64,000 bases of DNA from Podarcis cretensis. Lineage: Eukaryota. Below the pieces are notes generated by a model, which did no database searches, had not been told where the DNA came from, and saw nothing but the letters and a program-made list of their open reading frames with translations. How positions within the stretch are numbered: the first letter of the stretch is position 1; every line of letters begins with the position of its first letter. Below, piece after piece: positions 12,459 to 57,159 of the stretch. The position numbers were made by a program, and so were the translations under genes. The stretch is from the NCBI GenBank assembly GCA_951804945.1, contig OX638150.1, positions 44,392,001-44,456,000 of the forward strand, given 5' to 3'.

Positions 12459-12596
12459 GGGAGAGTACTTAGTCTATGAGAAGGATGACGTGAAGGCTGA
12501 GAAACGAGAATGGAAGAAATATGAGTTCCATTATGACAACGTGTTGTGGGCGCTCCTTACTCTTTTCACTGTATCTACAGGAGAAGGCTGGCCAGA
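12459..12596 (+). CDS. CACNA1A: Exon 27 (domain III pore loop, selectivity-filter TGEGW)
   Basis: catcag|G..GA|gtaagt, 138 nt; [45 protein letters not shown]. Confidence 0.97.
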
Positions 12597-24800: not shown

Positions 24801-27800
24801 GTTGGTTTGATTACTTTCTCAAGCCTAAGTGCCTTACATTAATCAAAAGCATCTTCTTGGCGCATTGCATGATCTTTTGAGCCAAAGATGCCTGCAGTTT
24901 ACTGGGCAGCTTCTGCTTTTAGTCCCCCCACTTACCCCATATTGTGTCACTTATTTTATTCAGATTCACATATGACTTCCAGTAACCCCATAGCAGGGAT
25001 GTGATATATATGCTGGCTGTTTGCCATAATAAACATTGATTGATTGAGGGATATGGTATAGTAATACTGCAGCCTCGGTGATGCCAATCTCTGAAGAGAT
25101 GATTGCATTTAATCTAAGTCTTGCATCAGTATGGATAGGCTTTCTAAAAGGATATGGTGGTAGACAGAAAGCTGTATCTGCAAGTTGCTGGGTTCTGACC
25201 CAGAGCCAGTGCCAGTTCCTGTCTGGGGGAAAACTTGGGATGGGAATTCAACGTGCAAGTGCCTTCCTTGATGACATACAATACCTGATGACAGTTTGGA
25301 GCATCCACCACAGTTGAAATACTGCAGATACTTTGCATATCATCTGGCATCACCTCCAAGCACATAGTTTTTGCAGTGTGTGTGCAGTCAAATAGAAGAC
25401 CTAAAAATCCCACTTGTCAATAGCTATCTGAACAAGTACCAGAAAAGCCCTGCACCCCCAGCTTCATTCTGCGTGCATAGGCATGCCCATTCACTCAAAA
25501 CTTTTCACATTTAACCTTCCCTTAATGCATACAACTTTAGCTGGGTATCCACTTACCACCTAAACACAACACACGCAAACACATTTCCTCACACATGAAC
25601 TGACCCTAAGGTCCTCTCAGTGATATTAAGATTCTCCATACACTTTCAGCCATGCACAGACAACCTCTGCTTTGGTCAGTTGAAGTAGAACAATTCCTTA
25701 GAAGAAGTAAGATATCATTATAACTATGGAAATTAGCCCAAGCCCATTTAGGAGTATTGGGAGGGATATTAACATCCCTTTTCCTGAGAGTCAGTTGTGG
25801 AGGGTGAGTCAAAGAGAAATCCTTAATTTTATTTCTCTGGGCCACTTTCAGTCTTACTTTTCTAACACACACCAATACTCCTCTTAAGATTAGGGTAGAC
25901 ATTAATTTTGAAAGATTGCATGTGCGTCCATTTCACATATTTAACAAAATCTCAAGAGGAATCTGTTGAGAAAACTTCTTCAAAATGAAACAGACATATA
26001 TATAATAAATATAAATCAAATTGAAACAGACACACATCACAGACACAATGCATAGCTTGAAGCAGTGATGCCTCCTATACTGGTTGGCTGACTTGGTACA
26101 GTGATCTAAATATTCAGTTGCTGAAAGGACATTGCTACTTAAAGTCCAGCTTTTCTGAGGGAGGGTAAATTGACAGTTTGACTGAAGAAATCTTGGCCTG
26201 TAGTGAAGCTTAGTGATAAAGTATTCAGAAGAAGGGAGGCAGAATGAATGGTACAGAGTAGGAAATGGACTGAAAGCAGGGAATCTGAAGGAAGGGTAGG
26301 TGAGCTAGGAAAAAGCAGCAACGGGAGTTGAGGCAAAAAAGAAAAGGAGGAGGCGGCAGTGAAGAAATTCTACAATTTGTAAGATCAAGAGGCAGGTGTA
26401 TGGTGTATGTTTGGGGCAGGAGAGTGCTAGGGCTGTTAGCCAAAAGAGACAGGATGAATAAAAAGTGTGGGGCAAAGTAGAGTGGACTGAAAAAATGCAA
26501 TAAAATTTGTAGGTGGAGACATGGAATGGAACTGAAGAAAGTAGGATACAAGAAGAAAGCTGAGCTAGGACTGTGGATTTTGTCTGAAAGGAAATGGGCA
26601 GGCAAGAGAGGTTTAGAAGCCTTGAGACAGTGGAACCGGGGTGGGGGGGCGTGTTTCTAGATCTAGTCTGACACAGGTTTCCACCGGTTAAATAGTTTAC
26701 TTTCACTGCATCATTGTGTCCTGGAATAAGATTCAAAAGGCAAGGGGCAGAGCTGAAATATATATATTGGTTTAAACAAAAGAGCTAAATATTTTGGCTG
26801 AAAGATTGTCCACTTAAGATATTGACCTTAGAATAGGCTTAAAAAGTAATGTAGGAAGTGAACTTTGGAATACAGGTGGTTAATAGGAAAGAGAGAATGG
26901 TGTGTGGCACCATTCCTAATGGTCTGTGTGGGCATATATTTCCAACTGGAAATGGGTGTGAGTCCCCTGCCTGTCTCTCTTTCCCTCTGCATGAATACCA
27001 TTCTTTGTTTGTCCTGCATGATCTGAGCATGGCAGTTTTAACAAACTGGTTTCACCCCATTGTATGTGTCACAGAGCCACCTCCACTACTGCCACCATGC
27101 ATGTCCACTGAAATCCCAATTAGAGGAACAGCCTTTTTGGAGGGTTGGAGAAGGATGGGCTTATAGCTTCTGGGAACACACATGCAAACACATGCATATA
27201 AAGAGTGAAGATGCAGCAATTAGGTTTCTTTTTGGAAGAGAAAATAAATCCTATTACAGTACATGGATATATTTGGCTGCAAGAACCACACTGTATGTCC
27301 ACTGTGTTATCACACACTTATAATGTCCACTGTGTAGCTGCATGGCAATTCCTCAGTCTTTGTTTTATAATTATAGAGCAAGGCATGTAGCAAGCCGGTA
27401 CATGTTGAGTGGTCACACCAATCTTTTGGCATGTGTATTGCCTGAGTCTTTTTCGTGCAGTTTTCTTTGGAGTTTGTGTATGAGGGGCGCTGTAGCACAG
27501 GTACTTTCATGAGTCTTGAGGGAGATGTTGGTGCAACTACATTCATTCCTGTGATGTATGTTGCATAGGTATCCCTACACACTCAATCCGCCAGATCACT
27601 TGCACTGTTTAGTGTACTATGGTGAAGCCACATGGTAATTCTCTTTGGAACCGTTAGAGCTGGCCAGGTTGTCCCTTTACAGTGTTCTCATTACTTGAAC
27701 ATGCAATTCTGGTTCCAGTGAGATCAAAGTGTGGTTCCATTGAGTTCAATATCGAAACCCAGGAAAGGTCCGTGGTGCATAGATTACTAAATCACTTAAC

Positions 27801-28687
27801 CGTTCATACTGGGGCTAAAATACAGGTTCCTGTTCAAGGGCTTTTGCCCAGGGATAAAGCTCATGTGTTTCTTACATGAGTTAAATATAAGTTGGCATTT
27901 TGTATCTAAGTTTATCTTTTTCTGTGCTAGGCCCTTCTTCCAACCTTTACTGAAACTCTTTTTTAGAAAGTGTCTGAAGGTCTCAGTGGTAGTTACTAGA
28001 GATACACAAACACATACATCAATATTCTATTGTCCAAACTCAGGTGATATCCTAACCCTCAGAAACCTTGGGCATCTTTCGCCCTCAGGGGCTGTGGGTG
28101 TCTGGCCATAGAACACTTTGCAACTAAGAAGTACATTGTCACACTTCAATGTATTCATTTTATCCCAGAAGCTTATATGCCATTTCCTCTGAAGGAGACA
28201 GATAAAAATGCATCTTGGTGAACCCAACAGGAGAATGTTTTTCCTATCTCGCCAGAATCACAAATCCTTCTTTTAGCTACAAATTTGTTGAACTAAGCTC
28301 TTCCTTCAGAGCTTGGGGTGTGGCCCAACACCTGTTGAGTGCACAGAACAGATGCATTTTCCATCGAGAATGATATGATAGCAAGTCTCCAGACATTTCT
28401 CAGCTCTCCTCTTCCTCACTGGCACTTGTCTTGCTTTCTCCTCTCTCCAGATTTGTGTGCACAGAACATGTGTGATGTGAGGCCACACAATAATGTTCTG
28501 CCTGCTTGTGTCAAAAAATATCAGTGCATTTGGTTGTGGGTATATTTAAAAAAAAAATGTAATCATGTGCTAATGAATTATCACTGATTTTCCAAATGGA
28601 TGATTTTCCAAGTAGAGGGGTGGCCTTATTATCATGCTAATTTTCTTCATGTGTGTGATCCCTCTCCCTTTCTTTGCTATTCAGTGA

Positions 28688-33695: not shown

Positions 33696-33863
<168 letters not shown>

Positions 33864-35912
33864 TAAGGACATGCCTACCTGGCCGTTCCCAATACTGTAC
33901 TCACAGCCATTGCCCCACACCAAGCAAAAGCTTGGGAAAGTGGATCAAATTGATCCATGCTTGGGGAAAACTCTCCTTAGTAAGGAAAACAGGGGCAGGG
34001 GATGGAGAAGAATTAGGCCTTAGAAGCTGGGCAGGGAGGCTACAGCTTAAGATTCCTGGGTCCTGCTGATTCCAACTCTATTAGGAAAGAGATTTAGCAG
34101 TGTGAAAGCTAAGACTCCTATGCTCTCTACATTACTTTCACACAAAGAAGTGCATTGGCTGGTAGGAGCATCGACTCCTGTGTTTTTGTTCATCTCAGGA
34201 AGGGAAACAATATTTAGGACTACAAAAGAAAAATAGTCTTATGCTTGTTCTACTCTAACAGAGCGAAGATATGATGTCATATTGGTAGATACAGTCCTTA
34301 TCTGTAATGATGTGAGAGAAAGGCAGAAGCCTAATCTGAGGCAGAGACTGGAGCCACTGCCCCTGTTTGCATGCAGCTCCATTGTGAGTCACCCACCTTA
34401 GCTGAGTTCCAGTCAGTGTGGATCTGTGGCCACTGCCACTCTGCCATTCCCATTCCTGTTGGCTAATTTCTGTGGGTCTCACTAGGAACAAGAGATTGCA
34501 AGAAGCAGATATGGGGGGTTTATCTCTGATTAACATTTCCTCTTTTAATTTTAGGTTTTTGCAGCTGGACTCTGTCAACTCCACACACACACACACCCTT
34601 ACATTATCCCATATGTTCAAAAGGGCATGATGTATTGCCCCTTGTGCCCAGGGATACCTGTTGCCATTTCCCTATTCTACCTAGTGGGCTATGTAGCCCC
34701 TACTGTAGGAAAACTGAGTAACATCACTAGTGTCACTTGAGCCAGACATGTGTATCTGAAGAAGTGTGCATGCACACGAAAGCTTACACCCAGAACAAAC
34801 TTAGTTGGACTCTAAGGTGCTACTGGACAATTTTTAATTTTTATTTATTTATTGAGCCAGACAGTTATCTCAGTGAAGCCCCTGATGGTAGCAGCTATGC
34901 TTCATGTTTTGTGTCACGTTAGTAGTATGTGAGCTAAAAAAGGGTTATTGTGGTACTGACATGGAAGCCGTCACAGAACCTACCAGTGTTACGTATTGTT
35001 CAGCCATCAAAGAAATGTGCTCAATAGCTCTGTTAGTTATAAATGACACACTTCTCAAATGTTGGCCTGTAGAGAGGTGTTTGTTTGTATGTATGTTTGT
35101 GTATGTATGTGAGACAGAGAGAGAGAGCATGTGTATGTGTGTGCCTGCTAGGGCCTGGCCTACCATTCTGGTGTGCTGGGGAGGAGGCCAAGCACTCTGC
35201 TGCTGCAAGCAGGCACAGTGAGCAGAGTTGTGATAATTGGCACCTAACAGAAGGTCCACCCAGCGTTCTCTTGGTATCGTTTGTCACCCCTGTGCCCTGT
35301 TGAGAATGAATGCCCGTTGTGTCCAGGTTTAATGTGTTTGTTTACGCTGCCAGCCCTAACTGGCAAAACCTGCCAAGCCCAGCTGAGGGAGTGTTCATCA
35401 GGGAGCCTGTGCCATGCAGGGGCAGGAAAACCAGGTCTGCCCCCGCCTGAGCACTGGTTTCTATGCATTTATTAATAAGGAAGAAAAATGTTGGAATGGG
35501 AAGCCCAGGGCTCCTAGAGTCCATGGCACAATGACTGGTTTTAAAGCGTCCATTGTGAGTTACAGAAAGGCAGCAATCCCTAATGGAAGACATACCCAAG
35601 TTGGGACCTCAGCTCACACTTGACACATGATCTTTGATAAATCTCACCATGCTGCATAGTTGTGTGTCATTCCCCTATCTTCCTGTCACCCTATATATTA
35701 ATGAAAATGGTACTGGCTCATCTTCTTTCCCAGTACTGATGGAGAACCCAATAGAGCTGCAGCAAAACCTGGGCTGCACAGCTCTGAGAAGCCCCTTTCC
35801 CCCTGCTGCCACCTATGGGAATGTACAGTTTCTCCATAAGCCCTGTGGGGGGTGGTATGGCTGGACTGAAGGTCTCTAGCCGGCAGTCCTGCTATGTTCT
35901 GTGTGTTCATGA

Positions 35913-36074
<162 letters not shown>

Positions 36075-37013
36075 TGACTTACACTAAAACCTGCTAGCAT
36101 CAACGGAATGAATGTTGCTTATGATTTCTTTAATATATATATTTCATATATATATATCTATATATATCTGTACACATACCTATCTATATATATTGCACTT
36201 TCAAGAGTAATTTAATGTAATTAGCCAACAGAATGCGTGAAATGATGCTGCCACCCAGACCAGTAACGCATGGAGCATACCGGTTACCTTGAACCATCTC
36301 TGCTTGCTGTTAGCTGGAGCTAGGCCTGGAGGGTTCTATGAGTCTCTCTCTCTCTACTCACCTCCACCACTCTCTGCACATTAATACTTCATTTGGGGAG
36401 GACAGAGACTCCATTGACACCTCTGCCATTTCCCCCCCCTCCCCTCCCCACTTCTTTCCACCCCCCTTTCCCTCCACCTTCTCTTCCTGCACTCTGCCCT
36501 CCTCCCACATTGGCAAAGAGGGGCTTTCTCATCTCAATCTGTCTTTCTCTTTCTCTCCTTCTTTCTGTGGATCTTCATTACTAAGAGGACCTGACTTTGC
36601 ACTCCTTGGCCCTATAAGCCCATGGAGGATTGTGGTCTGCATTTATAACCTGAGGCCGAGTAAACTAGATGGAGGCACATGCTTAAGTTAAACCTGTCCC
36701 TTTTGCAATGGGAACGCTAGCTCTGAAAGTATGGAGCTTGCACTTAAGCATTTTGCTGGATCACAGCCAGTTTGAGGAGCCATCTTTCTACTCCCAGTCG
36801 TCCATGAAGATCAAGCATATTTGAACTCTTGGCTGACAAGCAGCACAGTAATCTTTACATTTTTATCTTCCATTTTTTTCTTTTCCAATTGATTTCCAAT
36901 ATTTTTCTCTTCTTTGCATCTCTCTCTCTTTTCTATTTTTCTGTGTATTTTTTCCTTTTTTAATTATTATTATTATTTTTTGGTTGTTTTTATTTTTAAT
37001 TTTTTGCTCCCAG

Positions 37014-37110
37014 GGGCCGGATGACTTTCATGGACATGTATGAGATGCTGAGACACATGTCTCCACCCCTGGGGCTAGGGAAGAAATGCCCTGCCCGTGT
37101 TGCTTATAAG
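37014..37110 (+). CDS. CACNA1A: Mutually exclusive exon 37b (EFb) [33 protein letters not shown]
   Basis: tcccag|G..AAG|gtagaa, 97 nt, paralogous to 37a. Confidence 0.95.
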
Positions 37111-39444
37111 GTAGAATAATTTTTAAGAAATAAACAAGGCATATTTCAAGTTAGCTTCATTTTTAATTATTTTTTTTCAACAACAAAAATGCAAAAGCTA
37201 TAATTTTTGTACATTTCTTCCCCCTTCTCAATACAATTTCTTGAGCAGTAACAGTGTGTCCGTTCAGTACCGTTAGCGTTTCATGTTTCAGAGACTCCAT
37301 TATGGCCAATAAATGTTGGGTGGGTAAGAAACAACTCAAAGGTGCATGATCCTACTCAAAATCCTCCATCAAAGTGCCACCACCCTGTCCTCCTGCATCT
37401 AGCAGAAGAGACATTGCTTTTAAAATGTTTCACCTCCCATTCCCTTTGCCGCCGCCGCCCCCCCCCCCGCCCAAACAATTTAAACAGCTGTGATTGCTCT
37501 GAAACTATCCAGCCAATACAGATACCCCAAATGAACTGGGAAGAACAAAGCCGGAAGGGGAAGAGAGACCAAAGATCCAAAACACATTTAATGGCACTAT
37601 GAGTACTTTTGATCAGGCCAGTGTGTCCGCTTCTAGTGCGGGGGGTCAAAATGATATTAGTCACCATTACCTGCACTCTCCAGAAAGAACTGATGCCATT
37701 GGATTGAAATGTTTTCTAAATAAGTAAAATGCATGGCCCTGTGCCAGTTTTCCTCTACCTGGGCAATCTTTCCCTTTGACGCTGTAGTGGAGCTCCTGAA
37801 TCTCTGTTAAAATCCAGTTAACCACATTGCAGGGGTAGGTACATATGACTGTTGATGAGCTTTTTGGTGTCAATATAGGGAACACTGCAGAGAAAATTAA
37901 TGTTATACCCATTAGTTGAAAGCATATGATGCACTTGAACTGCCCATATATGCAGGTGAACAATGTAGCATATAACTAGAAGTTTGCCCACACTCATCCA
38001 TTTCAGACAAAATCCCCCCAATGAGATGAAGTTTCTGTGGTTCCCAACTTTCTTGAATGCACCTCACATATTCAGCAGTATCCAGGACCCAAAATCCCCT
38101 GGTGTCTTTCACGGTATGAACAGAGCTCTCCCAGGAATTCCTGATCAACCTCCTGTAAGTAATGTGAAATGTGGGGTAGCATAAGGGCAGAAGCACGTTA
38201 TTCAGACTCCATGCCCTGGTTCTCAGGGATGAGGTAATTTGCAGGGATGAGTTAATTTCCTTGTACCTGGGTTTAGATTATCTGGATAAATTCCAGATAA
38301 ATTTCACAATATTTCAAAACAGCAGGAAATTAAATGTAAACAAGATAGTAAGAAAGCCACTGTCCTCACAATTTGTTCCTCTGTCAAGTGAACACTGACT
38401 GAGGGTCAAAGTTGATGTGACTTTATTCATGCATTTTCTCTGTTATGCTCGCTTCAAAAAATATAAGCAGCTAACGCAGAGGGAGGAGCTGGATCAAAAC
38501 CATGAGGGGCACTTTAAGCCTTTGCCCCTGCTATGGTCCAGATTAGAATCCCCCCATCCCATTGCCCCATTGCCCCCTTCCCCAGTCTGCAATCCTAAAC
38601 CAACTTGGGGGCCCTCCATACTGCTATTTATGCTTTTTTAAAAAACCAAGCAAACCAACCAAGTATATCAGAGTTAAATAAGTGAATTTACAGCTGCAGC
38701 ATTGGTTGACTGGAGAAAATATTTGCTGGGAGTGAGTACCTGAGCTTCTTGGTGCCTTGCTTGTTCTCCTGTTTTGTTGTCTCTTAGACAGCTGAGGTTC
38801 CTGGTAAGTGCTGTAAGGACAGGGACCTGTGCCTGAACCCGAGGGGTTCTGGCTCAGTCTTGTAAGCTCTTACATCAGTTTCTGTCTGTGTCAAGAAACA
38901 TAAAAGCCCAGGAACATTTGTGCAGCAAATGGTATCATCCCTTAAGGAGCTCCATTGGGAGTTCCCAGGGCTTTTTTTCCAGTTCTGGCACCTCTCTTTT
39001 GGGCTCCATTGCCTTTCTGATAGAACAGGGGAGGTGTTCGTGGTGAGTTCTGGCACCTCTTTTTAAGAAGAATAGCACTGTGAGTCCCTAGGACAAAAGC
39101 AGTGCCCCCATCTATCCCCACCCCCCTGCATCCTGGAGACATTGGATAGTGTGAAGGGACCAGAATGCATGTGTGGTTTCCTGCACATGATAAGAGCCTA
39201 TGCAATGATAAGACAAAGTCACCTTCAGTTTCAGTGAGGGAGATAAAGCCATGGAAAAGTGATAGGTCACCAAGGAAGGCGAGGACAATGCAATTTACCC
39301 CATGGTCCTCTTTGCCACCCCTCCCAAGGATATAGGTTCATAGTTGCTCCTGAGTGTCCTCCCAGGCATTGTGGAGCCTGTTCTGCACCTAATGACAAGT
39401 GGTCATTAGGAGATTTGGGGTGAGGTGGCCTCAGTATGCTGATG

Positions 39445-40262
39445 CTACCCAGCTCTGCTCTGTAACATCAGGAGAGAACTGTGCAAGCTATAGATTGGTA
39501 CTTGGACTAGGGGCTGGATAAGAGCCAGTAAACCAGCTCTGAATCCTAGCAAGGCAAAGGTGCTGTAGTGAGTGTTTCCCAAGTCCAGATAATTGGTCAT
39601 TTGCCTGTTTTGGATAGGGTCATATTCCCACCCCACCCCCCAAAAAGCAGGTTTGTAGCCTGGGGATACTCCTGGATCCATCTTTATCATTAGAGGCCCA
39701 GATGACCTCAGTGGCTAGGAATGCCTTCTACCAGCTTCAGCTGGTAAGACAGCTACAGCCATTTCTGGATCAGAATATCCTGACCGCCAGGCTGGATTAC
39801 TTACTTCAGTGTACTTGCCTTTGGGGTTGGTCCAGAAGCTGCAGCTGTTGCAAAATCTGGTGCTTAGCTACCAGGCTAAATTCGTGGTGCTGGTTTTGCT
39901 GTATAAAGACCTATACAGCCTGGGACCAGGATACCCAAAGGATTGTCTTACACCTTAGATACCTAGTCAATCATTGTGCTTTGCAGGTGAGGGCCTCCTC
40001 AGAAGGTCCATCCTGTACAATGTCAGAATTGGGCCCTACCATTTGCAATTCCCTTTCCTTAAATAGTAGATAGGTGCACCTAACGAAGATCTTCCTCTTT
40101 CATCAGGCCTTTTAAGATGAGATTTTTACCAGTCTGCATCTGTACTTGAATTGTTTTAAAGATGGTTTTATTATTTTATCCCTTGTGGTTCACTGCCTTG
40201 GGCTTCTTTGAAAGGAAGGGCTGGGTATAAATTTAATTAATAAATAATAAATAAAATAAATA
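39445..40262 (+). mobile_element. Degenerate L2 fragment
   Basis: SVARNAFYQLQLVRQLQPFL..RLDY remnant; AATAA-repeat tail. Confidence 0.75.
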
Positions 40263-40528
40263 ACATCACATCTAGTTTGGTGCTGATAATGATTTATAAA
40301 GCTCGTTCTGAGCATTTAATTCAGTATTTAACCATTATGCAATTAGAGTTCTCACTTGCTATGCGTTTTTTTCATAATTGAAGTTTTTCTGTTGTATGTA
40401 TCCTAGAGATCACTTTTGATCTACACCACTCTCCTTAACTATGGCATAGGCATGGCCACTTGGTGCTGCATTCATATGGCAGCAGCTGATAATGCAATTT
40501 AGTACTGAAGCATAAATTTAGGAAACAA

Positions 40529-40610
40529 TACTGAATAATGAAAAATAGGATTTTGATTGATGCCCCTTTTACTGAATAATGAAAAATAGGATTTTGAATG
40601 ATGGTCCTTT
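40529..40610. repeat. ~41-bp tandem duplication
   Basis: tactgaataatgaaaaataggattttga(t/a)tgatg..cctttt x2. Confidence 0.85.
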
Positions 40611-42499
40611 TTCAGTACACTAGGGTATGCTACCCATGTTAAGCCTACTCGGTCACCAACCTACCATTTGAGCTTGTGGGAATCATTGTCCGGATTAGAA
40701 CACATGGCACATGACTTGCAGGTGTTAGTGTGCTTGGCACTTGAAAAACCATCTGTCTGGAAATGAATTGAAACTGGTAGAATTGGGCTTGTATTATGCG
40801 GTCTTCACAGAGTTTTATTATGGTTTAAGCACCAGTTTACTAGTTCAGACTTTTGGGCAAGACAGACAGTATTCACCTTCAGCTGCCAGTTAACAAGAGC
40901 CTAGAAGTGCAGGACTATACTCATTACCTCTTACACATGTACAGGCTAGCAACAGAACACATGCCCAGGTAGAGCTACTTCTGGGTAAAAGTTAGACTCA
41001 AGTCTTGGGCTCCATCAACCAACTTGCCTAGGGGTTGCAGTTCATTCTGCAGTTGGGATTGCTCTCTCATGCCCTTCCGGCTGCCCATAAAAGAATAAGG
41101 GAGGTGGGGAAGTTCTTGTAGTTGTTCTAATGGCTCTTTTGATCTCTTTGCATAACTTAAAACAGACACCCATGCCTTTTCAGTGCTTCTGCCTCCATAA
41201 CGGTGTAACTTCCTACAAAAGAACACAACCTAAGGGGAAGTAGTTCACTACTCTTAACCAGAGACGAATTAACAGCAACTAACCTTTTTCTCTGCCCCCT
41301 TCTCTCTGCTGCTCCATGCCTCCTTCTCTGTCAATGCAGTTCTAACCTATCAGAAGCTTTTCCCTTCTGCTCCTCCATAACTTCATATTCTAACCCTAAA
41401 CCTTTTATGCATCTCAGCAGCTGATCATCAAGCTACATCTTCTTTCTCCTTTTCTTCCCTAAGTCTACCACTCATACCCAGAGCTTCCCCTCTCACATTT
41501 TCTATGTTATGTGTGTGATCTCTCTTTCACCCTTCTGAACCATTGGGTTTCTATTGCTGGTTTATGGCACAGGTATTGAAAAGCTCACTCTCACTTGAAA
41601 GGGTCCTTGGATTCTGCAAGTTTAGTGTGGGGAGAAGGGGGAAGATACAAAACTCTGCCAGTTTTATCAATGGGGATAGACTCTGTAGTAAAAGTTTCAG
41701 TGCAGTCTGATGCCACAGAAACTGTGCAGTGAACATGCCACTATAGGATGAGAAATGTAGGAAGATTTGGGGAGAGGGTACTCAAATCCACCCAAGCAAG
41801 AGCAGTAAGTAAAGATGAATGTTTGAAAAGACCATGGTGAGTAGGAGGCAGTAACTGAAATAGGTTTTTCAGATGAAAGATTATACTACTGTATCCTGAT
41901 GGCAGCCAGCAACTAATACTTCCTTCAGACTATAATATCAGACCAGTCGTCGTACTGAAACATACGAGAAATGATCAGAGTGCTGAGAGAGATGAGGTCA
42001 GTTTGCTCACATTGCTCTGCCAATGGAAGAACCTTGTGGGAGGGGTGATTTGCACAGCTATGCAAGTGCCACCACACCTTTCCTATCTCTGGTGCTTGTG
42101 TGGTTCTTCACATGTAATTCTACCCCTCCCACATGGTTCCAGCGCTTTTAGGTTACCAAAGTGGAAGCCATAAGAGAAGTGCATCTTGCTACTGAAGTAA
42201 ACATGACAGCTCTTTCAACCTCTTGGTAGGTCCTTTTTGTGATATGTTTTAATTTGGGTTTAGGAGCAGGGGAAGGGTGTTATTCTTCTTTTGGAATGGT
42301 CATAATCTTACTCAGTGAGAAAACATGAATTTCTCAGCCAGTTTGACTGTATCTTATGAGCTGAACATGCTTAATAGAGACAATATGTATAAATGAAAAA
42401 TTACTTTTAAAGCAGTAAGTCTGATGGAGAATATTGCATGCGGACTAAACTTGAAGAAGTAACAATAATCACTCTGATGTTTTGATACTACTGTGACTA

Positions 42500-43060
42500 C
42501 TACAGTAGTCTTGAGGAGGATGTGATTTTTTTGAGAAGCAGAGAGAGATGTAATGGGCAAGAGGAGAAAGAGAATTCCATTCATTGGAGGAAGCAAATGA
42601 GAAGAATCAAAGACAAGACATAGCCGAGGCTATCTGTGACTTAAAACAAAATAAGATGATTATCCAGAGCATTATGACATATAAAGAAGTTAAATAAGGA
42701 TGGATAAGGCTGTGAAGAGTGTTGCTGAGAAGTTAAAGCATCAGCTGAGAGACAGGTGTAAATTTTGGTGAGGTTAAAATGTAACACCTGCCTGAATTAG
42801 AAACAGGATATTTGAGAATGAAAGAGGACAGTAAAAAATAAAACTCGAGACAATAAAATTAGGAAGAATGACAAGTATATTATTTGTCAGATGAAGAAAC
42901 AGAAGGTTTACAGGACAAGACAACAAATTCTATATAGTGTTTTTTAAGTTGTCTCTGGGTGTTCCAAGCAGAAAAAGCAAAAAGGCAGAAACAGAATGAT
43001 AAACTTGAATGTCGTTTGCATAAAGATGATCATTGAAATCAAACTGTTCTGTCAGAGATA
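42500..43060 (-). mobile_element. Ancient L2 reverse-transcriptase remnant
   Basis: Reverse-frame HLYANDIQVY resembles the L2 HLYADDTQLY catalytic motif; boundaries are approximate. Confidence 0.45.
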
Positions 43061-46000
43061 CAAAATTCCAAAGCCAGGTCTGCATATTGAACCAAATAAA
43101 AACTTTGTGAGCTGGACATTTCAACAAGGATCGTTCCATCCTGATGAATCAAGGAAGACACCAAAATCAATTTGATCTTCTCATTCTTCTCAGCCTTCTA
43201 GTACGTAGAACCATCTAGAACAAGAAATGTTAACCAAAATTTTATTAGATTTTATAAGCTGTGTCAAAAGTTATGACAATTGCAAAGTCACAAAAAATTA
43301 TAATTACATTTAAAAACAATATGATCAAATACAGAATCAAGGACTAAAAATTATTGAGTTCATCTTACAATGAAGTGTTCACTTCAGCTATATATTCAGC
43401 TATGTTTCATGCACAAAAATCTGTCTGATTTTTGCAGGACAGGCAAAATTTGGATATGATGTTAGGCTCTCATCTGTCCAGTGACTTTAGGTTTGTCTTT
43501 AAAGTTCAGGTTTCTTAAAAGTGAGCCAAGCAGTTCATTCGTGCAGTTCATTCATCACATTATAATATAATATAACTCTAAAGTTTCAGTGTAGTAGAGA
43601 TGTGTAGGATGTCTGCCTACATGAAGTTGGAGAAACACTCTTCACACAAACAATTTGTCATTCATCCATACACACTGCCCAGGCTTGCGCCCCAGGGATG
43701 TCACTTCAGTGCTGCTAATGCAGAGTTTGACTTCACCCCTGGATATGCGCTGCATTGACTTGCAAGACTGATGGATGCCAACATGGAGAATGCTCTCATT
43801 CTGCACAGATGCAGGGAGGATATGTTGTCTGTAAACACAAATATCTTCTTCCACAAGTTGGAGTGACTGCTGTGCCAATGACACACAGAATCCTGAACAT
43901 CTTTGACATTATTAAAAAGCAAAAATGTGCTGAACATGATAAATATGGAGATCATAGATTTTCAGCTAATTAAGTTCATCCATTGTAACAGGAACAAAGA
44001 TAATGCAGGTATGTACCTTTCACACTGATTTTTTCTGTCACTTTTTGAGTGGCAGAAGCCATTAGCATGTGATTTCCATGTAATTCAAGATTCACACCCA
44101 CTTTTAGTATAAATTGTCTTGCTTTGTTAATTATGGGCGTGTGAATAGGCTCCATGAGAAGACCCTGATTTATAAACCAGTGCCTCTGTGTAATCTCCAA
44201 AAGGGTGCAAGTCTGCCAGCAACTCCATAAGGAATTGTATGTTGGCTTTCATTGAACCATGACTGTTTCTGAGATTTGAGCTAAAAGTGAATCTGAATTG
44301 CTGCAGGCATTGCTTTGTCACATTCATACTGGTTCTTAACAACTACCCCAGTTCTTAATAATTGGTTCAAAAACTGATGCTAATATTTTTACCCCACACA
44401 TGGAGGTTTCACAAATGCTTTCTAGTTTGATTTTGTCTTATGTTGATATCAGCACATCTACAATGTGGGTCAGACAATTAAATCTTCATATGAAAGCTGT
44501 TGGAAAATGTATTTGCCAGTCACTTGTCAATTAGCTGGCTTAAACAAGTGAAGAATCTCCATGGTAGTTGCTCCGCAGGAAAATAAATTATCAGGTCACT
44601 GCTTTGCACCACCAGACTACTTTGCCAGCCTATATTTGAACAGAAAATCAGGACCTCAATCTTCCTACAGTTTGATTAAAAGGAAGAAGAGGCCAAATGC
44701 CCTGGCAGGCTGCCTATTTATCTTGGCACTGAGTGCAGGGTCAAGTGCCACCAATGGGCAGTTGTTCCCATGCCCAGGGGAACACCCACAAGGCCCTGCT
44801 GCCATTGGTCAATTTGGCAGCAGAGAGCAATCCGGCCTGCCATATGCCGGTTCACGAGAACGGCTCGGGGCCTGCCTGCAAAGCCGCCCATCCCAGAAGG
44901 GCAAACGGACTTTCTCTTCAATGCAAATCTCCATATATATATTTTTTGCTGTACTAACCTGCCATTGATTATTGCTTTGAATTTGAAGAAATTAGAACAT
45001 ACACACTTCTTTTTATATATATTAAAAAAAAAACCTGTCCAAACTTTTAAAGAAAGTTTGCACCTATAGGACTACTATAAGAAGAACTGCAACCTGATAT
45101 TGTTACTGTTGAAATTCCAAATTCTGTTCCTCTATCATTGGTGGGAAACCAAGTGTTCTCTTTCCACTCATCTTTTTGTCACAGCTCTTGAGTTCTTGGA
45201 TACTTAAATGCACTCTCAGTATTGCCTTTCATCTCGTTTCGCTCAGTTCCTGCAGCCAAAGAGGCAGAAGAGTTCATAGGCTGATAACACTGCATAACAA
45301 TTTTTGACAAAAGTCATGCCTCTGAGATAAAAGTAGCCATTTCTTACAGATTTTGAGGTGCTGAATACGAATATGACAATGAAAACGCAAAATCGGCTAC
45401 AGTTTCTCAGAGATCTGCAATCATTTATTATAATTTTGAGTATGACTATATGCTACTAAAACAGTAGCTGTCTGAGAAACGTGAGTTATTTGGCTTGAAT
45501 ACTATCTAACTGAAGAAGCAATACATTGGATAGTGGATATGGAAGATATGGAAAGAGGGCAGGTGAAAGGTAAAAAAATGTGCTTTAAAAAACCCAACCA
45601 CCAGTTAACAACTAGAAGATTTGAAAGGCTACAAAGAAAATGTTATCCTGCCCTGTCAGGCACATACACATTAATAGTCAGCCCAGTGTTGAATATATAT
45701 CTATGAACAATCTGGATATCATATGCTTACCTGAAGCCCAGTATTGTTTGCTCACTTACTTTGATTGGAAGTGGCTTTTCGAGGTCTTAGGTAGAAGTTT
45801 CCCCCCATCATCTGCTTCCTCATCCTTTTAACTGCATATGCATGTGAATGAACTTGGGACATTCTATGTACAAAGCATATACTCCACCACTGACCTATAT
45901 CCTGTCTCCTGGAACACTCAAAACCTAAAGCCTGTGAGTACCAACAAACTATACTGTATTGCCATACTTGCTAGGGTGCTGATACAGATGGGAGGCCCTC

Positions 46001-48321
46001 CACACAAATTAAATATGCTGTGACAGTCATAGTAACTGCTGTTTGCTGCACACAAATGTCAAAAAGGAGCATTGCAGGGAGTTTAACTAGATTACCCTTT
46101 GGGTCTCTTCCAACTCTACAATTCTATAAGAATATGCAAAGTTGCAGTAAATCAAGTCTACCTAGCCCAAATGTGTGGCAGAGGTTCTTCAAGGTATTGG
46201 GCTAATGGCTTTCCCAGCTTTTGTTTCCTGAGACCCTTCAACCAGAGATGCCAGAGATTGAATCCAAGACCTGCAAACAATTTGTTGTACTACTAAGCTA
46301 AGCCCTTTTTCCCACCTAGAGGGAAAGTCATCCTTGGTATCTAACTACTTTCATGCCTCAGTTAATTGTGACAACCCCAGGATAAGAAAAACAACAACTC
46401 AACTAAGTACATGCTGGTCAGAGAAGAATAAAATTCCTTAGGAGGAATTTGAAGAGACTTGGTGGTATTGCAGCTAGGGTGCAGGCTGCGTTCGCAGAAT
46501 ACCTCTTGCATTTTTGCTATTCTTCAGACAGGAGGCACAAGTGACCATGTTTTGAAAAAACCACCACTATGCTAACTTCTCAATGAAATATTGAAATCTA
46601 GTCCTAAGTTGTGGAGAGTCACAGGAAGATACAGAACCATTGTGAGTCCGCACTGCAGTCCATGCCTCCTGTCATGGGATGATTTGCAATGATCATGTTA
46701 TGGCTGGAGAAGAGCAGCACACTGATGAATCGTTTCTGAATGGGGGCAAAAATCTAATTAGCCTTGATGCAGATGGAGTTGTTAAAAGTGGTTAATGGAA
46801 GTATTAGGCTCATCATGTAAGGCTAAGCAATTAGGTAGGGCAGGGTATAAAATCTAGTACCCTCCAGATGTTTTTGGACTATGGTTCCCATCATCCCTGA
46901 CAATTAACAATGCTGCCTTGGGGAGTTGTAGCCCAAAAACATCTGGAGGGTATAGGAAAGCTTTGTTTGTACCATGTTGACTTTTTACATAAGGAAATGC
47001 ACATAGCTACCTGTGCCTTAGACCCTGGTAAGGCATCTGGTTTCAAAGGAGACTGTATGCAGGAGCTTGTATTGGGTGTCAGGAATCCCAGGTTAGCATA
47101 GACTTGGTGAAAGGAGGATGAAGAGATGGGAGAAGGAATGTGGTGTGTGGAGCTCAAGGTAAATGAACTTTAGGCTAGAGGCCTTGGTGTCAAGACTCAT
47201 AGGTCTCATTCCTAGCTGTGCTATTTCCATATCTGTGCTTTACGTCCCAGCTTTACAAAACCCTTTGAGTAAAAATAATCTTTTCAATGCAATACACTAT
47301 AATAATCTCTCTCCTCTGTAATGGCCCACTCCTCTGTAAATCTTCCATGTCCTTCCCATTCGCTACCATTGTCCATACATCCCTTGGTTCATTCAACCAT
47401 GACATCAGCTGTCCAGAAAACCAAAGAGAGATAAATTTGTTCTGCAGTTCCCTTACGTATTTGTGGGGAAGAGAATTGGGATTTCTGAGTGCCCTATTTG
47501 CCCTGGTAAAGAATTGCTGCCTGTATCCATTCACCCCCACCATTATCCCTTATTCACTGTTGCTGTCCCTAATCATACAGAGATCCCAGGGTTTATTCTG
47601 CATGAGACAGCAATCCAAGGGACCCAATTCTCCTACAGAATTGGCATTTTCATAATCATTGGCCTACATACACTATGGCTAACATGATTTGGCTCTTTCA
47701 TCTCCCTTACTGTTGCAATCCATGCTTGCTCCAGTGCATGGAAAAGCTAGGACGCTGTCCCCAAATAAGCGCACTGTGAATTCTGTGCCATTGAAACACA
47801 CACACATGCACACATACAGAAATTCAAATTCAGTAAGCAGAAACTACAAACTATAAGTGAATTTTTGTATGAACAATACAAATCTGTATGAATATTTCTA
47901 TAACATTTTGTTTTTGTTTTTGTTGGCATTGAGATATTTTGGGTCACAACAAGAAATGCTTCAGGGAATTGAATGCAGCAAAACAATAGGGGGGAAGTGG
48001 ATATAGAATGACTCTGGAAGAAGGGCATGTGGTATGGGAGTGGGGAGGAGGGGAGCCACAAGCAACTGCTACACCCAGGCCTAATATCACAGTTTGTGAT
48101 ATAAGAATAGCTGCAGTGTGGTAACATTTGAAGGAAGACAATTCTGTGGGTGGAAGCAGCAAGGTAGTTTACAAACCCATAACAGTTCTGCAGGTCCTGG
48201 GAGAGGTCACTGCTCCTATGGGAGGTAACTATGCTGCTGGCCCCAGCCACATGAATCCATTGTTACTAGAGGTCAGCCATGCTGTAGCAGTTCCTATGCC
48301 ATTCATAAAAGCAAAGTAACA

Positions 48322-48638
48322 CTCAGGGTTTATCCACAGTTATATTTCCTCTACTTCTTTCAGGCACAGTCTGCGCTTTAAAACACCGCATTCAAGTGCT
48401 CTCTCTTTTTTTGCCCCATCACATTCCCTGCAAAAACCCACTCTTTAAAGCTCAATCAGAGCAAACAGCAATCTGGGAAACCCAAATTGATGCTTGCTCC
48501 AATTGGGTTCTAAAGAGCAGGTTTTCACAGGGAAAGCTTCAAGGGGGGCAGGGACGCAACAACTCTTGGACATGGAGCTTTTGAGTGCAAACCTGTATCT
48601 GGAAAGAGCAGGAGAAATGGTAGCTGTGGATAATCCCC
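48322..48638. mobile_element. Harbinger-like MITE
   Basis: gggtttatccacag..ctgtggataatccc termini, internal ctctttaaag/ctaaagag palindrome. Confidence 0.6.
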
Positions 48639-48674
48639 CAGTCTTGTAGACTGCCAGAATCCTGGGGTATCCAC

Positions 48675-49460
48675 TGAGGGTTTATCCACACTTTCTCTTG
48701 TCCCGCTGCTTTCCTCCAGGGAAAACTGCTCTTTAGGGCTCAAGTTATCTCTCGCTTGTACTACTGCAATGCGCTCTATGTGGGGCTACCTTTGAAGGTG
48801 ACCCAGAAACTACAGCTAATCCAGAATGCGGCAGCTAGACTGGTGACTGGGAGCAGCCGCCGAGACCATATAACACCGGTCTTGAAAGACCTACATTGGC
48901 TCCCAGTACGTTTCCGAGCACAATTCAAAGTGTTGGTGCTGACCTTTAAAGCCCTAAATGGCCTCGGTCCAGTATACCTGAAGGAGTGTCTCCACCCCCA
49001 TTGTTCTGCCCAGACATTGAGGTCCAGCGCCGAGGGCCTTCTAGCAGTTCCCTCACTGTGAGAAACCAAGTTACAGGGAACCAGGCAGAGGGCCTTCTCA
49101 GTAGTGGCACCCGCCCTGTGGAATGTCCTCCCACTAGATGTCAAAGACAAAAACAACTACCAGACTTTTAGAAGACATCTGAAGGCAGCCCTGTTTAGGG
49201 AAGCTTTTAATGTTTAATAGACTATTGTATTTTAATATTTTGTTGGAAGCCGCCCAGATGGGCAGGGTATAAATAATAAATTATTATTATTATATTGTAA
49301 TCCGAGCAAATAACAATTCAGGTTCCCCCCAAATTGCCATTTGTTCCAATCTATCGCTAAAGAGCATGTTTTCCCTTGGAAAGGAACAGGGCAAGGGAAA
49401 ACTTCTTGGACCCGTGCTTTCTAGGCACCGCACAATTGGAAAAGTCGACAAGCCCTGAGT
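48675..49460. mobile_element. Harbinger-like MITE split by the L2 insertion; related fragment at ~1990-2165
   Basis: Left arm agggtttatccac..gggaaaactgctctttag, right arm ctaaagagcatgttttccc..gtcgacaagccct. Confidence 0.6.
48746..49295 (+). mobile_element. L2 LINE 3' fragment (young)
   Basis: YCNALYVGLP..LQLIQNAAARLVTG..HITPVLKDLHWLPV is a typical L2 ORF2 C-terminus; ends in a (TTA)n tail. Confidence 0.9.
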
Positions 49461-50388
49461 GAGGCAGTCACCAAGAGGTGTGGCTATTGAGTTCTGGTTG
49501 CAAAGCAAAAATATAATTTCTACAACTACTGTTAAACTTTTGGTCAACTGCCAAAAAGTCCAGAGAGTCCATCCCCAGTCCTCTGTGAATTCTGAATGCA
49601 ATGCAAAAGAAAGGTCTAAGGGATGAGAAGGAAAATAAGGTTGCTTCATCTTGTTTTATGAGGTGCCTCACCTTTGGGATCCACAACAGATCCTGCATAT
49701 GGCCCAAAAGAAAGGCTTGACTCTGCAAGATCTTCTGACAGGTTGAATTAAGTTATGTGACAGAAATGGATTTGATGCACAGGCCATGTACCTTGTTCAT
49801 GGACAGCTCAGGAACACAAGGTAATGTGAGGGCACAGGCAGCATTCTTACCAAATTGCCAAAGAGGAGGAAATTCTGAGCTCCCAAGTACGAAGCACTGA
49901 GGAAGATCTGTTCAGTCTAATGCAGGCTGCTCTCCCAAGATTTACAGGTTTTCTGGACATCAGATTCCTGAGGGATCTTCCTACTTAATGTGTCATCATC
50001 ATTATCATCACCATCATCTATATGTGTGTCTCCCTCTTTCTTTCTCCTCTTCCTTCAGAGTTTTTGATCTCATCTGTCATTCTGTGCACCTCTGTTCAGT
50101 GACATCCACTTAATGAACCCCAAGGACCCTGACCGTCTAACCCCCATTTCCATTGGTCCTATCTCAGCTAATGCACTAGCTGGTCAAGCCCCACCCTGAG
50201 CATCTTGTGTGATCTCCAGCCCACAGCCTTGGCTCAGGAATGGCACATGGCCCATAGTCTGTCAATTTCATTTCTTTCTTTTCTACCTTAAGGATGCACC
50301 CATTTTTTGCACCAAGAGCCCACAATCCGGATCTCTCCCTTAGAGCAATCTATACCAGAGCTATGAATGAGTCTCAACGTGTTCTCTG

Positions 50389-50434
50389 TGCATGCTTTTG
50401 CACTGTGCTGCATGCTGCATGCTCTTTTTGCATG
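50389..50434 (+). promoter_or_regulatory. Cluster of four TGCATG (RBFOX) motifs
   Basis: TGCATG at 50389, 50409, 50416 and 50429. Confidence 0.7.
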
Positions 50435-50592
50435 CTCTAGTCTTGCGCATTTGATGAAATCTGTTCTGTTGAATGTTTGTGTGCATTCTCCTTGGACCCT
50501 ATCCCTTTACCACTGCTGTCTACTGCTGTCTTGGATAGTTGGGATTTTATTTGGGTTTTTCCTTTGTTTTACACTTTTTTACTTTTATATAG

Positions 50593-50620
50593 ACAATGAG
50601 CTCTTTGGGGAGAACTCTGT
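50593..50620 (+). other. Candidate 28-nt poison microexon in intron 37
   Basis: U-rich tract, tatag|ACAATGAGCTCTTTGGGGAGAACTCTGT|gtaagt. A stop codon arises in either splicing context. No transcript evidence is available here. Confidence 0.45.
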
Positions 50621-51285
50621 GTAAGTTTGGAAGAGGACCTTAAAAGGGATACATTCTGGAGAGGAGAGATTACATCATGAGAGACTTAGTTGGATAGGAC
50701 ACATGGGACTCATCTACAGCTAGGGGATGAGAGTAGCTCTAGTGACCCAAGCTAGGAGTCTAGAATATTCCTATTTCTGAAAACTGATTGGGATACAGTG
50801 GGCTAGAACAGAAGCCAGGAAACTGCCTCCAAGTCTAATACAGACAACATAAGGGTCTCCTTGCAGAGGTCTTCAGACTACAGTCATCTCTGGCTAAAGT
50901 CATTGGCAAAAACCCAGTAGATAATCTTGCAGAATGTTTAAGGTAAATCTCAGTGGGATGAATTTCTAAGCAACACGTTTAGGAGTGCAACCAGGTCCAT
51001 AAAGTTATTATGTGGGGTTATTTCCAGGCCCATCTTCTAGTAGCTGATGTGTACTCCACATGCCAGTATCTGAAAGCAGTTGGGTGAAAGCAAAATAAGG
51101 TGTGATAAGAGCCGAGTATCCAGATATTAACATATTGCAACTGGCCTCTGGTCCTCGTGATATTGGGTGGGAAGTGAGGTTAAGACATGAGGAGGAGGAT
51201 TTGATGCAAGTTATTGAACTCAGAGTTCTCCCCAGAGCTCATATACTCCTCTGTGCATGATAACCTGGGTGGTGGGGAGTTGTGA

Positions 51286-51426
<141 letters not shown>

Positions 51427-52056
51427 TGACACCCCCATAAACACAGCAAGAGAGAGCAGTTTCTTTCCTGACAGATTAGAGAATTCTGGGAAATTAAATA
51501 TTGGAAAGCAAAGCCTGGGAAAAGTTTTCAATTAGCAATAATTTTGCCTCAGATTAACCTCATCCGCTACACTACTACCACTGCACAATTATAATACCTG
51601 CTAGTTCTTTTATATAGACGATACATTGCACATAAATATGTATGCAAATGCCTATAGGAGAAACAAGGCTCCCTGGACCAGATATTCCCCAGGGAGGAGT
51701 AGTAAGGGGTAGGCATTCTGCCTCTTAATTGGTCAAACATAACAGTACCAGCCTATGCATGAAGAAAGCAGTTACCGGTATGTTAAAGACCCATCAGAAG
51801 AATGATACTGCCTTTAAAACCTAGGAACATTTCACTGTAGAGTTTTACACAGGATGAAATGTACTTGTCATTATTAAAAGCTCCAAGGCCCCTTTTCTGA
51901 CTCGCTTGGGTTGGAGATCTTTCTGGTTATTTTGCCATAGTAGTTTGTCTCCTTGCCCCCTACAGCTGAGGTCAGGGAGCACCGAAACCTCCCATGGAAC
52001 AGAATGCCCCAGGGTGCATTCCACATCTTTCAGGAAGACTTCTCCCAAAGTGTAGA

Positions 52057-52190
52057 TAAGGGTTGCAGAACCTGTGGCCTTCCAGATGCTGCTGGACTCT
52101 GACTCAGCTTCAGCCAATATGGCCAATGGTCAGGGATGATGGGAGTTGTAGTCCAGCAACATATGGAGGGCCACAGGTTCCCCATCTCTG
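52057..52190. mobile_element. hAT-type MITE (related copies at ~46841-46965 and ~62355-62497)
   Basis: aacctgtggcc..ggccacaggtt inverted arms, gatgatgggagttgtagtcc core. Confidence 0.7.
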
Positions 52191-52559
52191 ATCTACATGC
52201 AAGGAGTCATCTTACTGAGTGGTATGGAATGCACCCTGACCAAAAAAATAATGATGATGATGTAGAATATTCTGATGTAGAACTTTAGAATGTTAAGGAG
52301 AAAACTGTTCTAGAATCCTCTCTGACTTGCCAGCTTTCTGTGTCCCAGGAAATGCTGAGGGCAGCAATAGTCAAACATACCAACTAACACCTACAATGTG
52401 AAGTGTGACTGATTCAACTCTGATATAGAGTGGCTGTAACAGCAACGGGGCACATCCATACCGTACATTTAAAGCAATGCACATTTAATCCAATGCACAT
52501 TTAAAGTACATGACTTCCCCCAGAGAATCCTGGGAACTGTAGTTTGTTAAGGCTGCTAG

Positions 52560-52945
<386 letters not shown>

Positions 52946-53349
52946 TTCATTCTGTCCACACTGAGTTCATGCAAATACTCACTTCTTTATGGAAATAACT
53001 TTATGGAAATTACTGTTGCAATGTCATCTTGGCAATGGAGAGAACTGTGTTATTTCCACATGGATAGTCTCACAGGGAACACAATGGTAAAGCAGCACTC
53101 AGCAGGACTGAACCATCCTCATCAGCTGTCACCCAGTGATGTCAACTGATAGACAGATGGGCATGGTTTGGGGAAAACAGCCTCATGGATAAACTTAGAT
53201 CCCATGGTGGGACAAGAGTTCCTCATGGTCCAGACGTTCCCCACCCCACCGTAAAAGATCAAGTGCATAGTTGGAAGTTACTCTGTAATGCCACCTTGTC
53301 CACTGAAGGCTGATTATTGACAGTGGTTATTGACAGCTATGGCTGATTC

Positions 53350-54185
53350 ATCACATATGTCCATGTCTGGACAGGGATAGCCTGGCCACACTAATTCACA
53401 CCCTAGTAGCTTCCTGGATTAACTATTGTAATGCACTTTACATAGGGCAACTCCTGAGCACAGTTCAAAGATTGTCACTAGTTCAGAATGCCAGTTTTTT
53501 TAAAGCATCTGCATTGGCTATATGTCGCCGGGCTCCCCACGCTGCGGATAGCAGCCTGCCGCCCAGCGCGCATGGAGCCCTGAAGCAGAGCGCCCCGCGC
53601 GCTGGACAGACATCGGCCAGCCCCACAAGCTCGGGGGACAGCGGGGAGGCGCAGCGCTGCCATCCCACTGTTCCCCGACCTGGTTTTGGGGGGGAAATAA
53701 AGGGGAAAAAATTTCCTTTATTCCCCCCCCCAAAAAAAAAGTAGGTGCGTCCTATGGGACGGAGCGTCCTATGGGACGAAAAATACGGTAACTAAAAGAG
53801 CACCTCTCCCAATATTGTCCCTCCCATATGCTGAGACGTATCAGGGAGGCTGTGTTGGTAGTAGCACCATTAATGGATACCTGATTGACTAAAACTTGGA
53901 GATAGGTGCTCTTGATCGTAGCACCACAACTCTGGAGGACTTTTCTCGAGATCAGACAGGTATCAACGCAGAGTAGGTTCTGATGTCAGGTAAATACATT
54001 TCTCTTTAATTAGCCTTCAGACAGCAGGTGTTTTCAGGTAAAGGAACTTGTATATTGTGATTTTTTATTAATTTTACTTTTTGAAAGACTTAAATTGTTA
54101 TTAATTCTTATTGATTATTTGTTGTTTCATCTTTTTTGTAAACCACTTTGAGTTTTTTACAATCAAGTATAAAATAAAAAATAAT
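53350..54185 (+). mobile_element. Degenerate L2 fragment interrupted by a DNA transposon piece
   Basis: LATLIHTLVASWINYCNALY..LKHLHWL remnant, resuming after 53790. Confidence 0.7.
53521..53790. mobile_element. Truncated Tc1/mariner (pogo-like) non-autonomous element
   Basis: GC/CpG-rich island ending in gcgtcctatgggacg x2 + aaaaatacgg-TA, a pogo/mariner-type terminal repeat; the left TIR is not seen. Confidence 0.6.

Positions 54186-54713: not shown

Positions 54714-57159
<2,446 letters not shown>

Follow-up and report, generated by a model that had tools for sequence, protein, structure and literature searches.

Gene setting and the exon-like element

The window analysed here is a stretch of 64,000 nucleotides (nt) from the lizard Podarcis cretensis (G000:C2:44392001-44456000) and carries CACNA1A-type exons. 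The subject of the analysis is a 28-nt exon-like element near the end of intron 37 of this gene, together with a cluster of RBFOX-type motifs and a predicted long-range helix. The gene is presumed to be that of Cav2.1. The gene name and the exon numbering are based on general features of that channel, on exon sizes in the tables of PMC13078869 (128, 97, 97, 106) and on the labels of matched proteins. Intron 37 measures 14.2 kb. The features on which the text relies are the following.

33735-33862, forward strand: exon 36, ending in TG
35975-36071, forward strand: exon 37a, 97 nt, phase 0 at its end
37014-37110, forward strand: exon 37b, 97 nt, phase 0 at its end
50389-50434, forward strand: four TGCATG (RBFOX-type) motifs, starting at 50389, 50409, 50416 and 50429
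50538-50592, forward strand: U-rich AG-free tract and AG, the distal (putative decoy) acceptor A2
50593-50620, forward strand: exon-like element, 28 nt, TATAG before it and GTAAGT after it
50596-50619, forward strand: 5' arm of the predicted helix, made of segments of 9 and 13 bp with two U bulged, 24 of the 28 nt of the element
50621-50626, forward strand: donor GTAAGT, +2 being G in organism H
51221-51242, forward strand: 3' arm of the same predicted helix, located 95 to 74 nt upstream of exon 38
51254-51259, forward strand: fifth TGCATG, 11 nt past the 3' arm
51316-51421, forward strand: exon 38, 106 nt, beginning with AG; a GC donor follows, and contigs of 5/5 RNA-like runs show the joint to exon 39 letters
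from about 52768: exon 39
49973-50058, forward strand: second strong upstream acceptor (A1), AG-free gap of 84 nt, pyrimidines 25/25, of uncertain membership in the module

The first-pass annotation had described the element as a poison microexon, and the signals on which it relied are all present: the 28-nt body, the TATAG, the GTAAGT and the U-rich tract, which is free of AG over a gap of 52 nt (preceding AG at 50537). The donor, which had been called perfect from +1 to +6, has the intronic hexamer, but its exonic side (TGT) pairs with 0/3 U1 positions. The premature stop expected on either route is found as well. The last T of the element and the AG of exon 38 make TAG; where the element replaces the 97-nt exons, the TG of exon 36 followed by A makes TGA. 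Either stop precedes further junctions, exon 39 and the following exons lying downstream, and any use of the 50593 acceptor leads to a stop upstream of the IQ exon. A second donor at 50943 (AAG/GTAAAT), for which no change is listed in the related organisms F, G and H, also yields a stop.

Short pseudo-exons featuring an AG-free tract and GTAAGT are uncommon in the window, but not unique (3 on the sense strand, 0 on the antisense strand). The two others measure 16 nt each, and are found at 12581-12596 and 38788-38803, the latter also within intron 37. The region 50340-50660 has a genome-wide match only to itself. No Rfam family matched across 49200-51500 at E up to 1, and a spurious 85-aa frame over the block had no matches in a protein search. 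The possibility that the element is a terminal exon was dropped, AATAAA and ATTAAA being absent between 50593 and 51316.

RBFOX-type motifs

The four upstream TGCATG motifs noted in the first-pass annotation are confirmed (starts 50389-50429), and their density is beyond chance: four motifs within 46 nt were obtained in 0/20000 random placements of the 35 non-overlapping motifs of the window. On the antisense strand the tightest group of four spans 610 nt. The cluster lies in a segment (50340-50459) for which no difference is listed in F, G and H; two unlisted differences of H fall somewhere in 50170-50505. Five GCATG motifs in about 100 nt were found also in the CACNA1E-like paralogue of the same genome (G000 C6, reverse complement of L013+L014, 14761-14862), where they reside 670-770 nt upstream of exon 37b.

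A predicted long-range helix

The first-pass annotation overlooked that 24 of the 28 nt of the element form one arm of a helix, as predicted from base complementarity. The segment 50596-50619 is the reverse complement of 51221-51242, save for a two-base bulge, and the two arms may form 22 Watson-Crick pairs closing a loop of 600 nt. The duplex has a calculated energy of -40.1 kcal/mol, against means of about -22 for shuffled sequences, and was equalled in 0/300 and 0/300 trials when either side was shuffled. In a sliding scan of the window 2/1405 positions score equally, both being local hairpins with partners less than 100 nt away. In the predicted fold of 50500-51340 (841 nt) the two helix halves have pairing probabilities of 0.90 and 0.96. 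The exon body is almost wholly paired in this fold, and only loosely structured before the 3' arm is transcribed.

Among the 17 mapped acceptors the helix score is highest at exon 38, reaching 53 there vs 25-36 at the other 16 (the position of exon 40 being placed a few bases off). Scores at 120 random positions had a mean of 31 (standard deviation 4.7), and the single position that reached 53 (1/120) may correspond to the same helix. Two strong local hairpins found in intron 38 (52066-52181 and 52516-52611; -42 and -48 kcal/mol) are probably short inverted-repeat elements.

Pairing of a docking-site/selector type to exons 37a and 37b was searched for and rejected: between 50050-50640 or 51201-51316 and 33861-50049 no complementary stretch exceeded 11 nt (E at best 0.33), with G-U pairs disallowed.

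The predicted helix would shorten the distance between the motif cluster and exon 38 from 882 to about 236 nt. It could act as an RNA bridge which carries the RBFOX cluster to the 3' end of the intron and biases which upstream exon is joined, retention of the intron being a side effect. The parts match those reported for SCN9A, in which RBFOX motifs and a conserved helix reside in the intron that follows the mutually exclusive exons 5a/5b (PMC12772994, which in its accessible portion describes the RBFOX RNA bridge and does not mention CACNA genes), and the factors regulating exon 37a are stated to be unknown in the accessible part of a 2025 review (PMC12149502). Such a bridge to the 37a/37b pair is nevertheless quite improbable. 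The helix makes no contact with either exon, all complements to 33861-50049 measuring at most 11 nt; the cluster remains 13 kb from exon 37b, and a strong putative decoy acceptor is left unexplained.

Variation among relatives

Eight of the 24 listed runs were compared, with run X19 (organism I) and all DNA runs set aside. In F, G and H combined, 6/301 sites vary in the block 50340-50640 vs 37/575 in the loop; the Fisher p is 0.003, rising to 0.015 if the two unlisted H differences fall in the block. Sites are not independent in this test, since the three organisms share ancestry. Three differences are unlisted in all: counting puts the two of H in 50170-50505, and the third, of J, is unplaced.

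Sequences of F and H span both arms of the helix, those of G and J do not. No change was found in the 44 paired bases, and no difference is listed for F or H in the 3' arm 51221-51242. The sole arm change is at 50606 in H; no pair is lost there, because this position sits in a stretch of three U of which two are bulged.

The first-pass annotation had asked for conservation of AG and GTAAGT in related lizards. The acceptor AG is unchanged in F, G and H, the tract of H featuring one substitution and one inserted T. The donor is unchanged in F and G, and mutated to GG (+2 T>G) in H, one of the three other species whose contigs bridge it; the H variant is read from one contig at depth 12.5, 123 letters from the contig end, and could be an allele. 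In the same organism a contig of run X18 jumps back, at a direct repeat of 7 nt, from about 50192 to 50126 (window 50126-50199), denoting either a tandem duplication in H or a template switch.

Fish-like loci

Four loci were retrieved from metagenomes, two of vertebrate type (L002 and L003) and two irrelevant; genome contigs gave one irrelevant locus, viral contigs none. L002 and L003 carry a CACNA1A-type exon 38, have three collinear intronic blocks in common, and would be two paralogues of a teleost-like fish. One common block is G-rich (36 nt, 75%, E 0.012), and can be aligned on visual inspection to the 3' half of the element. GCATG clusters are found in L002 and L003 745-868 and 1075-1255 nt upstream of exon 38. 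The G-rich arm of L002 pairs near exon 38 (-36.9; 0/300 shuffles), as does a 46-nt arm of L003 (0 and 2 of 300 shuffles). A predicted 9-bp helix in L003 begins 4 nt past a strong distal AG and stops 72 nt short of exon 38; the corresponding distances in the window are 4 and 74 nt. Five codons of the L002 3' arm are retained at the same distance in P0014, a reading frame from another genome. Taken together, the sequence comparisons are suggestive of conservation from lizard to fish. No donor lies directly behind the matching arm in either locus, L002 having one at the start of the arm.

A further block of 44 nt is common to the two loci (L003 1668-1711 and L002 3461-3504; 77%, E 2e-5). It ends T/GTGA just upstream of the GCATG cluster, and may possibly be the end of a poison exon in fish. 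Only its first few letters are recognizable in the window counterpart (about 50290), where there is no donor.

These data bear on the first-pass proposal of a conserved poison cassette. What stands is an exon-like element which is conserved and linked to RBFOX motifs; what does not is the conserved cassette, as the donor is GG in H and missing behind the matching arm of the two fish-like loci, and the invariant part is the paired part. The proposal may be reformulated as a poison exon masked by the helix, in which the 28-nt exon, or a longer one starting at the same acceptor, would be spliced in when the helix is unformed and RBFOX is low, resulting in TAG and nonsense-mediated decay (NMD). 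All splice signals are present and unchanged in organisms A, F and G, both routes lead to a stop, the element is loosely structured until the 3' arm is made, and the donor at 50943 could serve equally; the 44-nt fish block would make TAG with exon 38, and RNA structure governs the poison exons of BRD2 and BRD3, according to the accessible part of PMC10789245. The masked poison exon is nonetheless held to be unlikely. The GG donor of H and the matching arms of L002 and L003, which have no donor behind them, argue against it, and the skipped-exon rows of human and mouse CACNA1A listed in the accessible part of PMC13078869 include none between 37b and 38; the element is absent also from a human cryptic poison-exon table.

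Intron 37 in RNA-like contigs

Contigs of five runs (X3, X15, X17, X18, X20) were used as a source of transcript structures; these runs are only guessed to be RNA, and X3 is listed as of unknown kind. Exon 38 continues into the first letters of exon 39 in all five (5/5), and intron 37 sequence, in the form of the last 1-2 kb of the intron, is present in all five as well. In X3, X15, X17 and X18 contigs continue without a break past the start and the end of the 28-nt element. Intron 37 runs continuously into exon 38 in X3, X15 and X18, and one X20 contig holds intron, exon 38 and exon 39 in succession. The share of the intron path, calculated as intron over intron plus spliced joint, the spliced path being marked by a 31-nt record, is roughly 0.49 in X15 and 0.32 in X18. 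Organism H thus keeps an intron path (0.32) despite the GG at the donor of the element, for which the 50943 donor could substitute.

No joint or loose end was found at 50593 or 50620 in the contigs of the five runs, which drop rare forms and cannot show absence. Three raw-read RNA runs of organism J had 2, 0 and 0 reads placed, too few to test junctions. The segment 51423-51440 of intron 38 has no cover in the contigs of the five runs, which show presence only.

Intron-bearing contigs could also derive from an extended exon 38, formed by use of an upstream acceptor (50059, 50293, or 50593 read through) or by an internal start in intron 37. The cover of X3 starts at 50242, fading upstream, and a contig of X17 ends at about 50060, if without indel, adjoining the strong acceptor 50059; in L002 and L003, too, the GCATG cluster has strong acceptors upstream of it, and an in-frame ATG is found in exon 38. 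Against this, an X15 contig is continuous for 1073 nt upstream of 50340, passing 50059 unbroken, and no loose end is seen at 50293 or 50593 in the compared contigs, which cannot show a start. An extended exon 38 is regarded as very unlikely.

Interpretation

The donor can be lost where motif cluster, acceptor and pairing are kept, a pattern which fits a structural and decoy role better than a cassette exon. The explanation that we favour, tentatively and with a probability of about 0.45, is that the 28-nt element supplies the 5' arm for the predicted 22-bp helix, and that this helix, together with the four RBFOX-type motifs and the putative decoy acceptor, delays the removal of intron 37.

According to this scheme, the U-rich tract at 50538-50592, transcribed 720 nt ahead of the true acceptor, would recruit U2AF. 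Upon transcription of 51221-51242 the helix would bury the exon body, and the decoy would seldom be spliced in. With the helix formed, about 75 nt would separate the decoy AG from the exon 38 acceptor, and about 236 nt the motif cluster. RBFOX bound upstream of an exon usually represses that exon, and RBFOX placed upstream of exon 38 may hold its acceptor back. The outcome would be a pool of transcripts otherwise spliced and retaining intron 37, and a longer time for the choice between 37a and 37b; leakage through the decoy acceptor would end in a premature stop.

Several points weigh against delayed removal of intron 37 by such a module. Runs were selected because they contain this part of the intron, the shares are poorly measured by contig depth, and only 18-19 nt of intron 38 lie within the compared stretch. 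No compensatory change was found among relatives, and the lack of changes in the 44 paired bases has by itself a chance of 0.05-0.07. CACNA1B and CACNA1E of the same genome have no comparable helix (scores 27 and 37). The helices of the two fish-like loci score 36 and 30 in the unbiased scan, inside the null distribution of random positions; taken alone, the L003 arm of 28 nt does not reach significance (120/300 shuffles), and the global fold of L002 favours other pairings. The fish arms do not align confidently with those of the window, and BLAST of lizard against fish introns is not significant (best E about 0.1), so that deep homology rests on the layout and a short motif. The donor is described as essential for decoy exons in the accessible part of PMC6097662, and it is here lost in H, which keeps the intron path.

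The same data are compatible with chance, i.e. a functionless pair of cryptic splice sites and an inverted repeat next to a real and unrelated RBFOX cluster. Three similar pseudo-exons in the window, the donor loss in H, the missing covariation, the lizard-fish comparison, and the little power offered by three close relatives all point in this direction. The helix, however, exceeds all shuffles and all other mapped acceptors, variation is lower in 50340-50640 than in the loop, and the two fish-like paralogues are similar in layout; coincidence appears highly improbable.

Delayed removal by helix, motifs and decoy acceptor may be extended to a broader and doubtful proposal. A module kept from fish to amniotes, made by the RBFOX cluster, the decoy acceptor and a helix that reaches the branch-point region of exon 38, might hold a third to half of CACNA1A transcripts unspliced at intron 37, as a releasable store which times the EFa/EFb choice.

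Significance

Exons 37a and 37b determine how P/Q channels behave in Ca2+-dependent facilitation and in synaptic coupling, as stated in the accessible parts of PMC7235277 and PMC7555146. The element offers exact mutable parts (four motifs, a predicted helix of 22 bp, a putative decoy acceptor), through which a splicing step so far without explanation could be probed in a disease gene. Should the removal of intron 37 be held back, its release could increase the productive output of CACNA1A. If the module is real and present in human, antisense agents directed at it could raise Cav2.1 in haploinsufficiency, and non-coding ataxia variants may have been missed there. The case also cautions that what looks like a well-formed 'microexon' may instead serve as a structural arm.

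The first-pass annotation had assigned to the element the role of an NMD gate limiting Cav2.1 to mature neurons. This role is already filled in mouse and human by an exon between exons 31 and 32, measuring 170 nt in human and 168 nt in mouse, which is among the CACNA1A events in the accessible part of PMC13078869. Inclusion of the mouse exon is given there as 0.75-0.92 at E11, 0.20 at E18, and 0.07-0.12 in adult cortex and cerebellum. Double skipping of 37a/37b is also reported in this source, whose supplement was covered for 5/5 event rows (file 5), 30/35 places (file 6) and 18/26 places (file 3). Between exons 31 and 32 of the window, TGCATG is found at 26988, 27015, 27098 and 27339, followed by an acceptor at 28451 and a possible donor near 28612; by sequence, the features at 26988-28611 are candidates for the equivalent, in the window, of this mammalian poison exon of 168/170 nt.

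No description of the intron 37 element was found in a literature search from which subscription papers mostly fell outside. CACNA1A is unmentioned in the accessible text of PMC6889285, and the three of four supplement places covered have none in the interior of intron 37. The accessible supplements of PMC11632617 and of PMC8052449, a catalogue of paired regions, do not name CACNA1A, that of PMC8052449 probably not being the full catalogue. The full human catalogue of paired regions may contain the element, and the supplements of bioRxiv 10.64898/2026.01.19.700316 may list CACNA1A events.

Other features of the window

The GC donor of exon 38 reads GCAAGT (51422-51427), and is confirmed by the exon 39 joint in contigs. 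Many genomic reading frames continue as G-K past exon 38, which fits a widely kept GC donor. Reading frames at 39618-40070, 48678-49214, 53334-53741 and 55742-56592 resemble what we take to be retrotransposon fragments.

Comparison with known systems

An RBFOX RNA bridge reportedly governs exon 11a of ENAH, a case attributed to Lovci 2013 in PMC12772994. Compared to the bridges of ENAH and SCN9A, the helix described here is long and continuous, with 22 predicted pairs, the motifs would be brought to a downstream constitutive acceptor rather than to the regulated exon, and the 5' arm is an exon-like element behind a strong acceptor. The likeness to the SCN9A elements ISRE1/ISRE2, as presented in the accessible portion of PMC12772994, lies in the association of conserved TGCATG motifs and a long-range intronic helix after a mutually exclusive pair in a voltage-gated channel gene.

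Decoy exons, such as those of SF3B1 intron 4 and OGT (PMC6097662, in its accessible part), are similarly conserved cryptic cassettes in a large intron, which introduce a stop if included. The introns of such decoys are found in otherwise spliced transcripts, as the end of intron 37 appears to be in the runs selected for containing it. In contrast to these, the cassette is here predicted to be base-paired. BRD2 exon 3b and BRD3 exon 5b (PMC10789245, in its accessible part) likewise combine a frameshifting exon-like element and a long-range helix; here no inclusion is seen in contigs, the donor is not conserved, and the arm is the exon body itself. The NMD exon between exons 31 and 32 resides in the same gene, and its unproductive splicing falls during brain maturation. 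That exon is supported by junctions, whereas the element described here resides in another intron, has a different size and has no junction support. In its predicted action the element resembles an RBFOX RNA bridge coupled to a decoy exon. Donor conservation, which defines poison exons, and donor requirement, which defines decoy exons, are each lacking in the element, which is therefore placed under the broad heading of a 'long-range intronic helix with RBFOX sites'.
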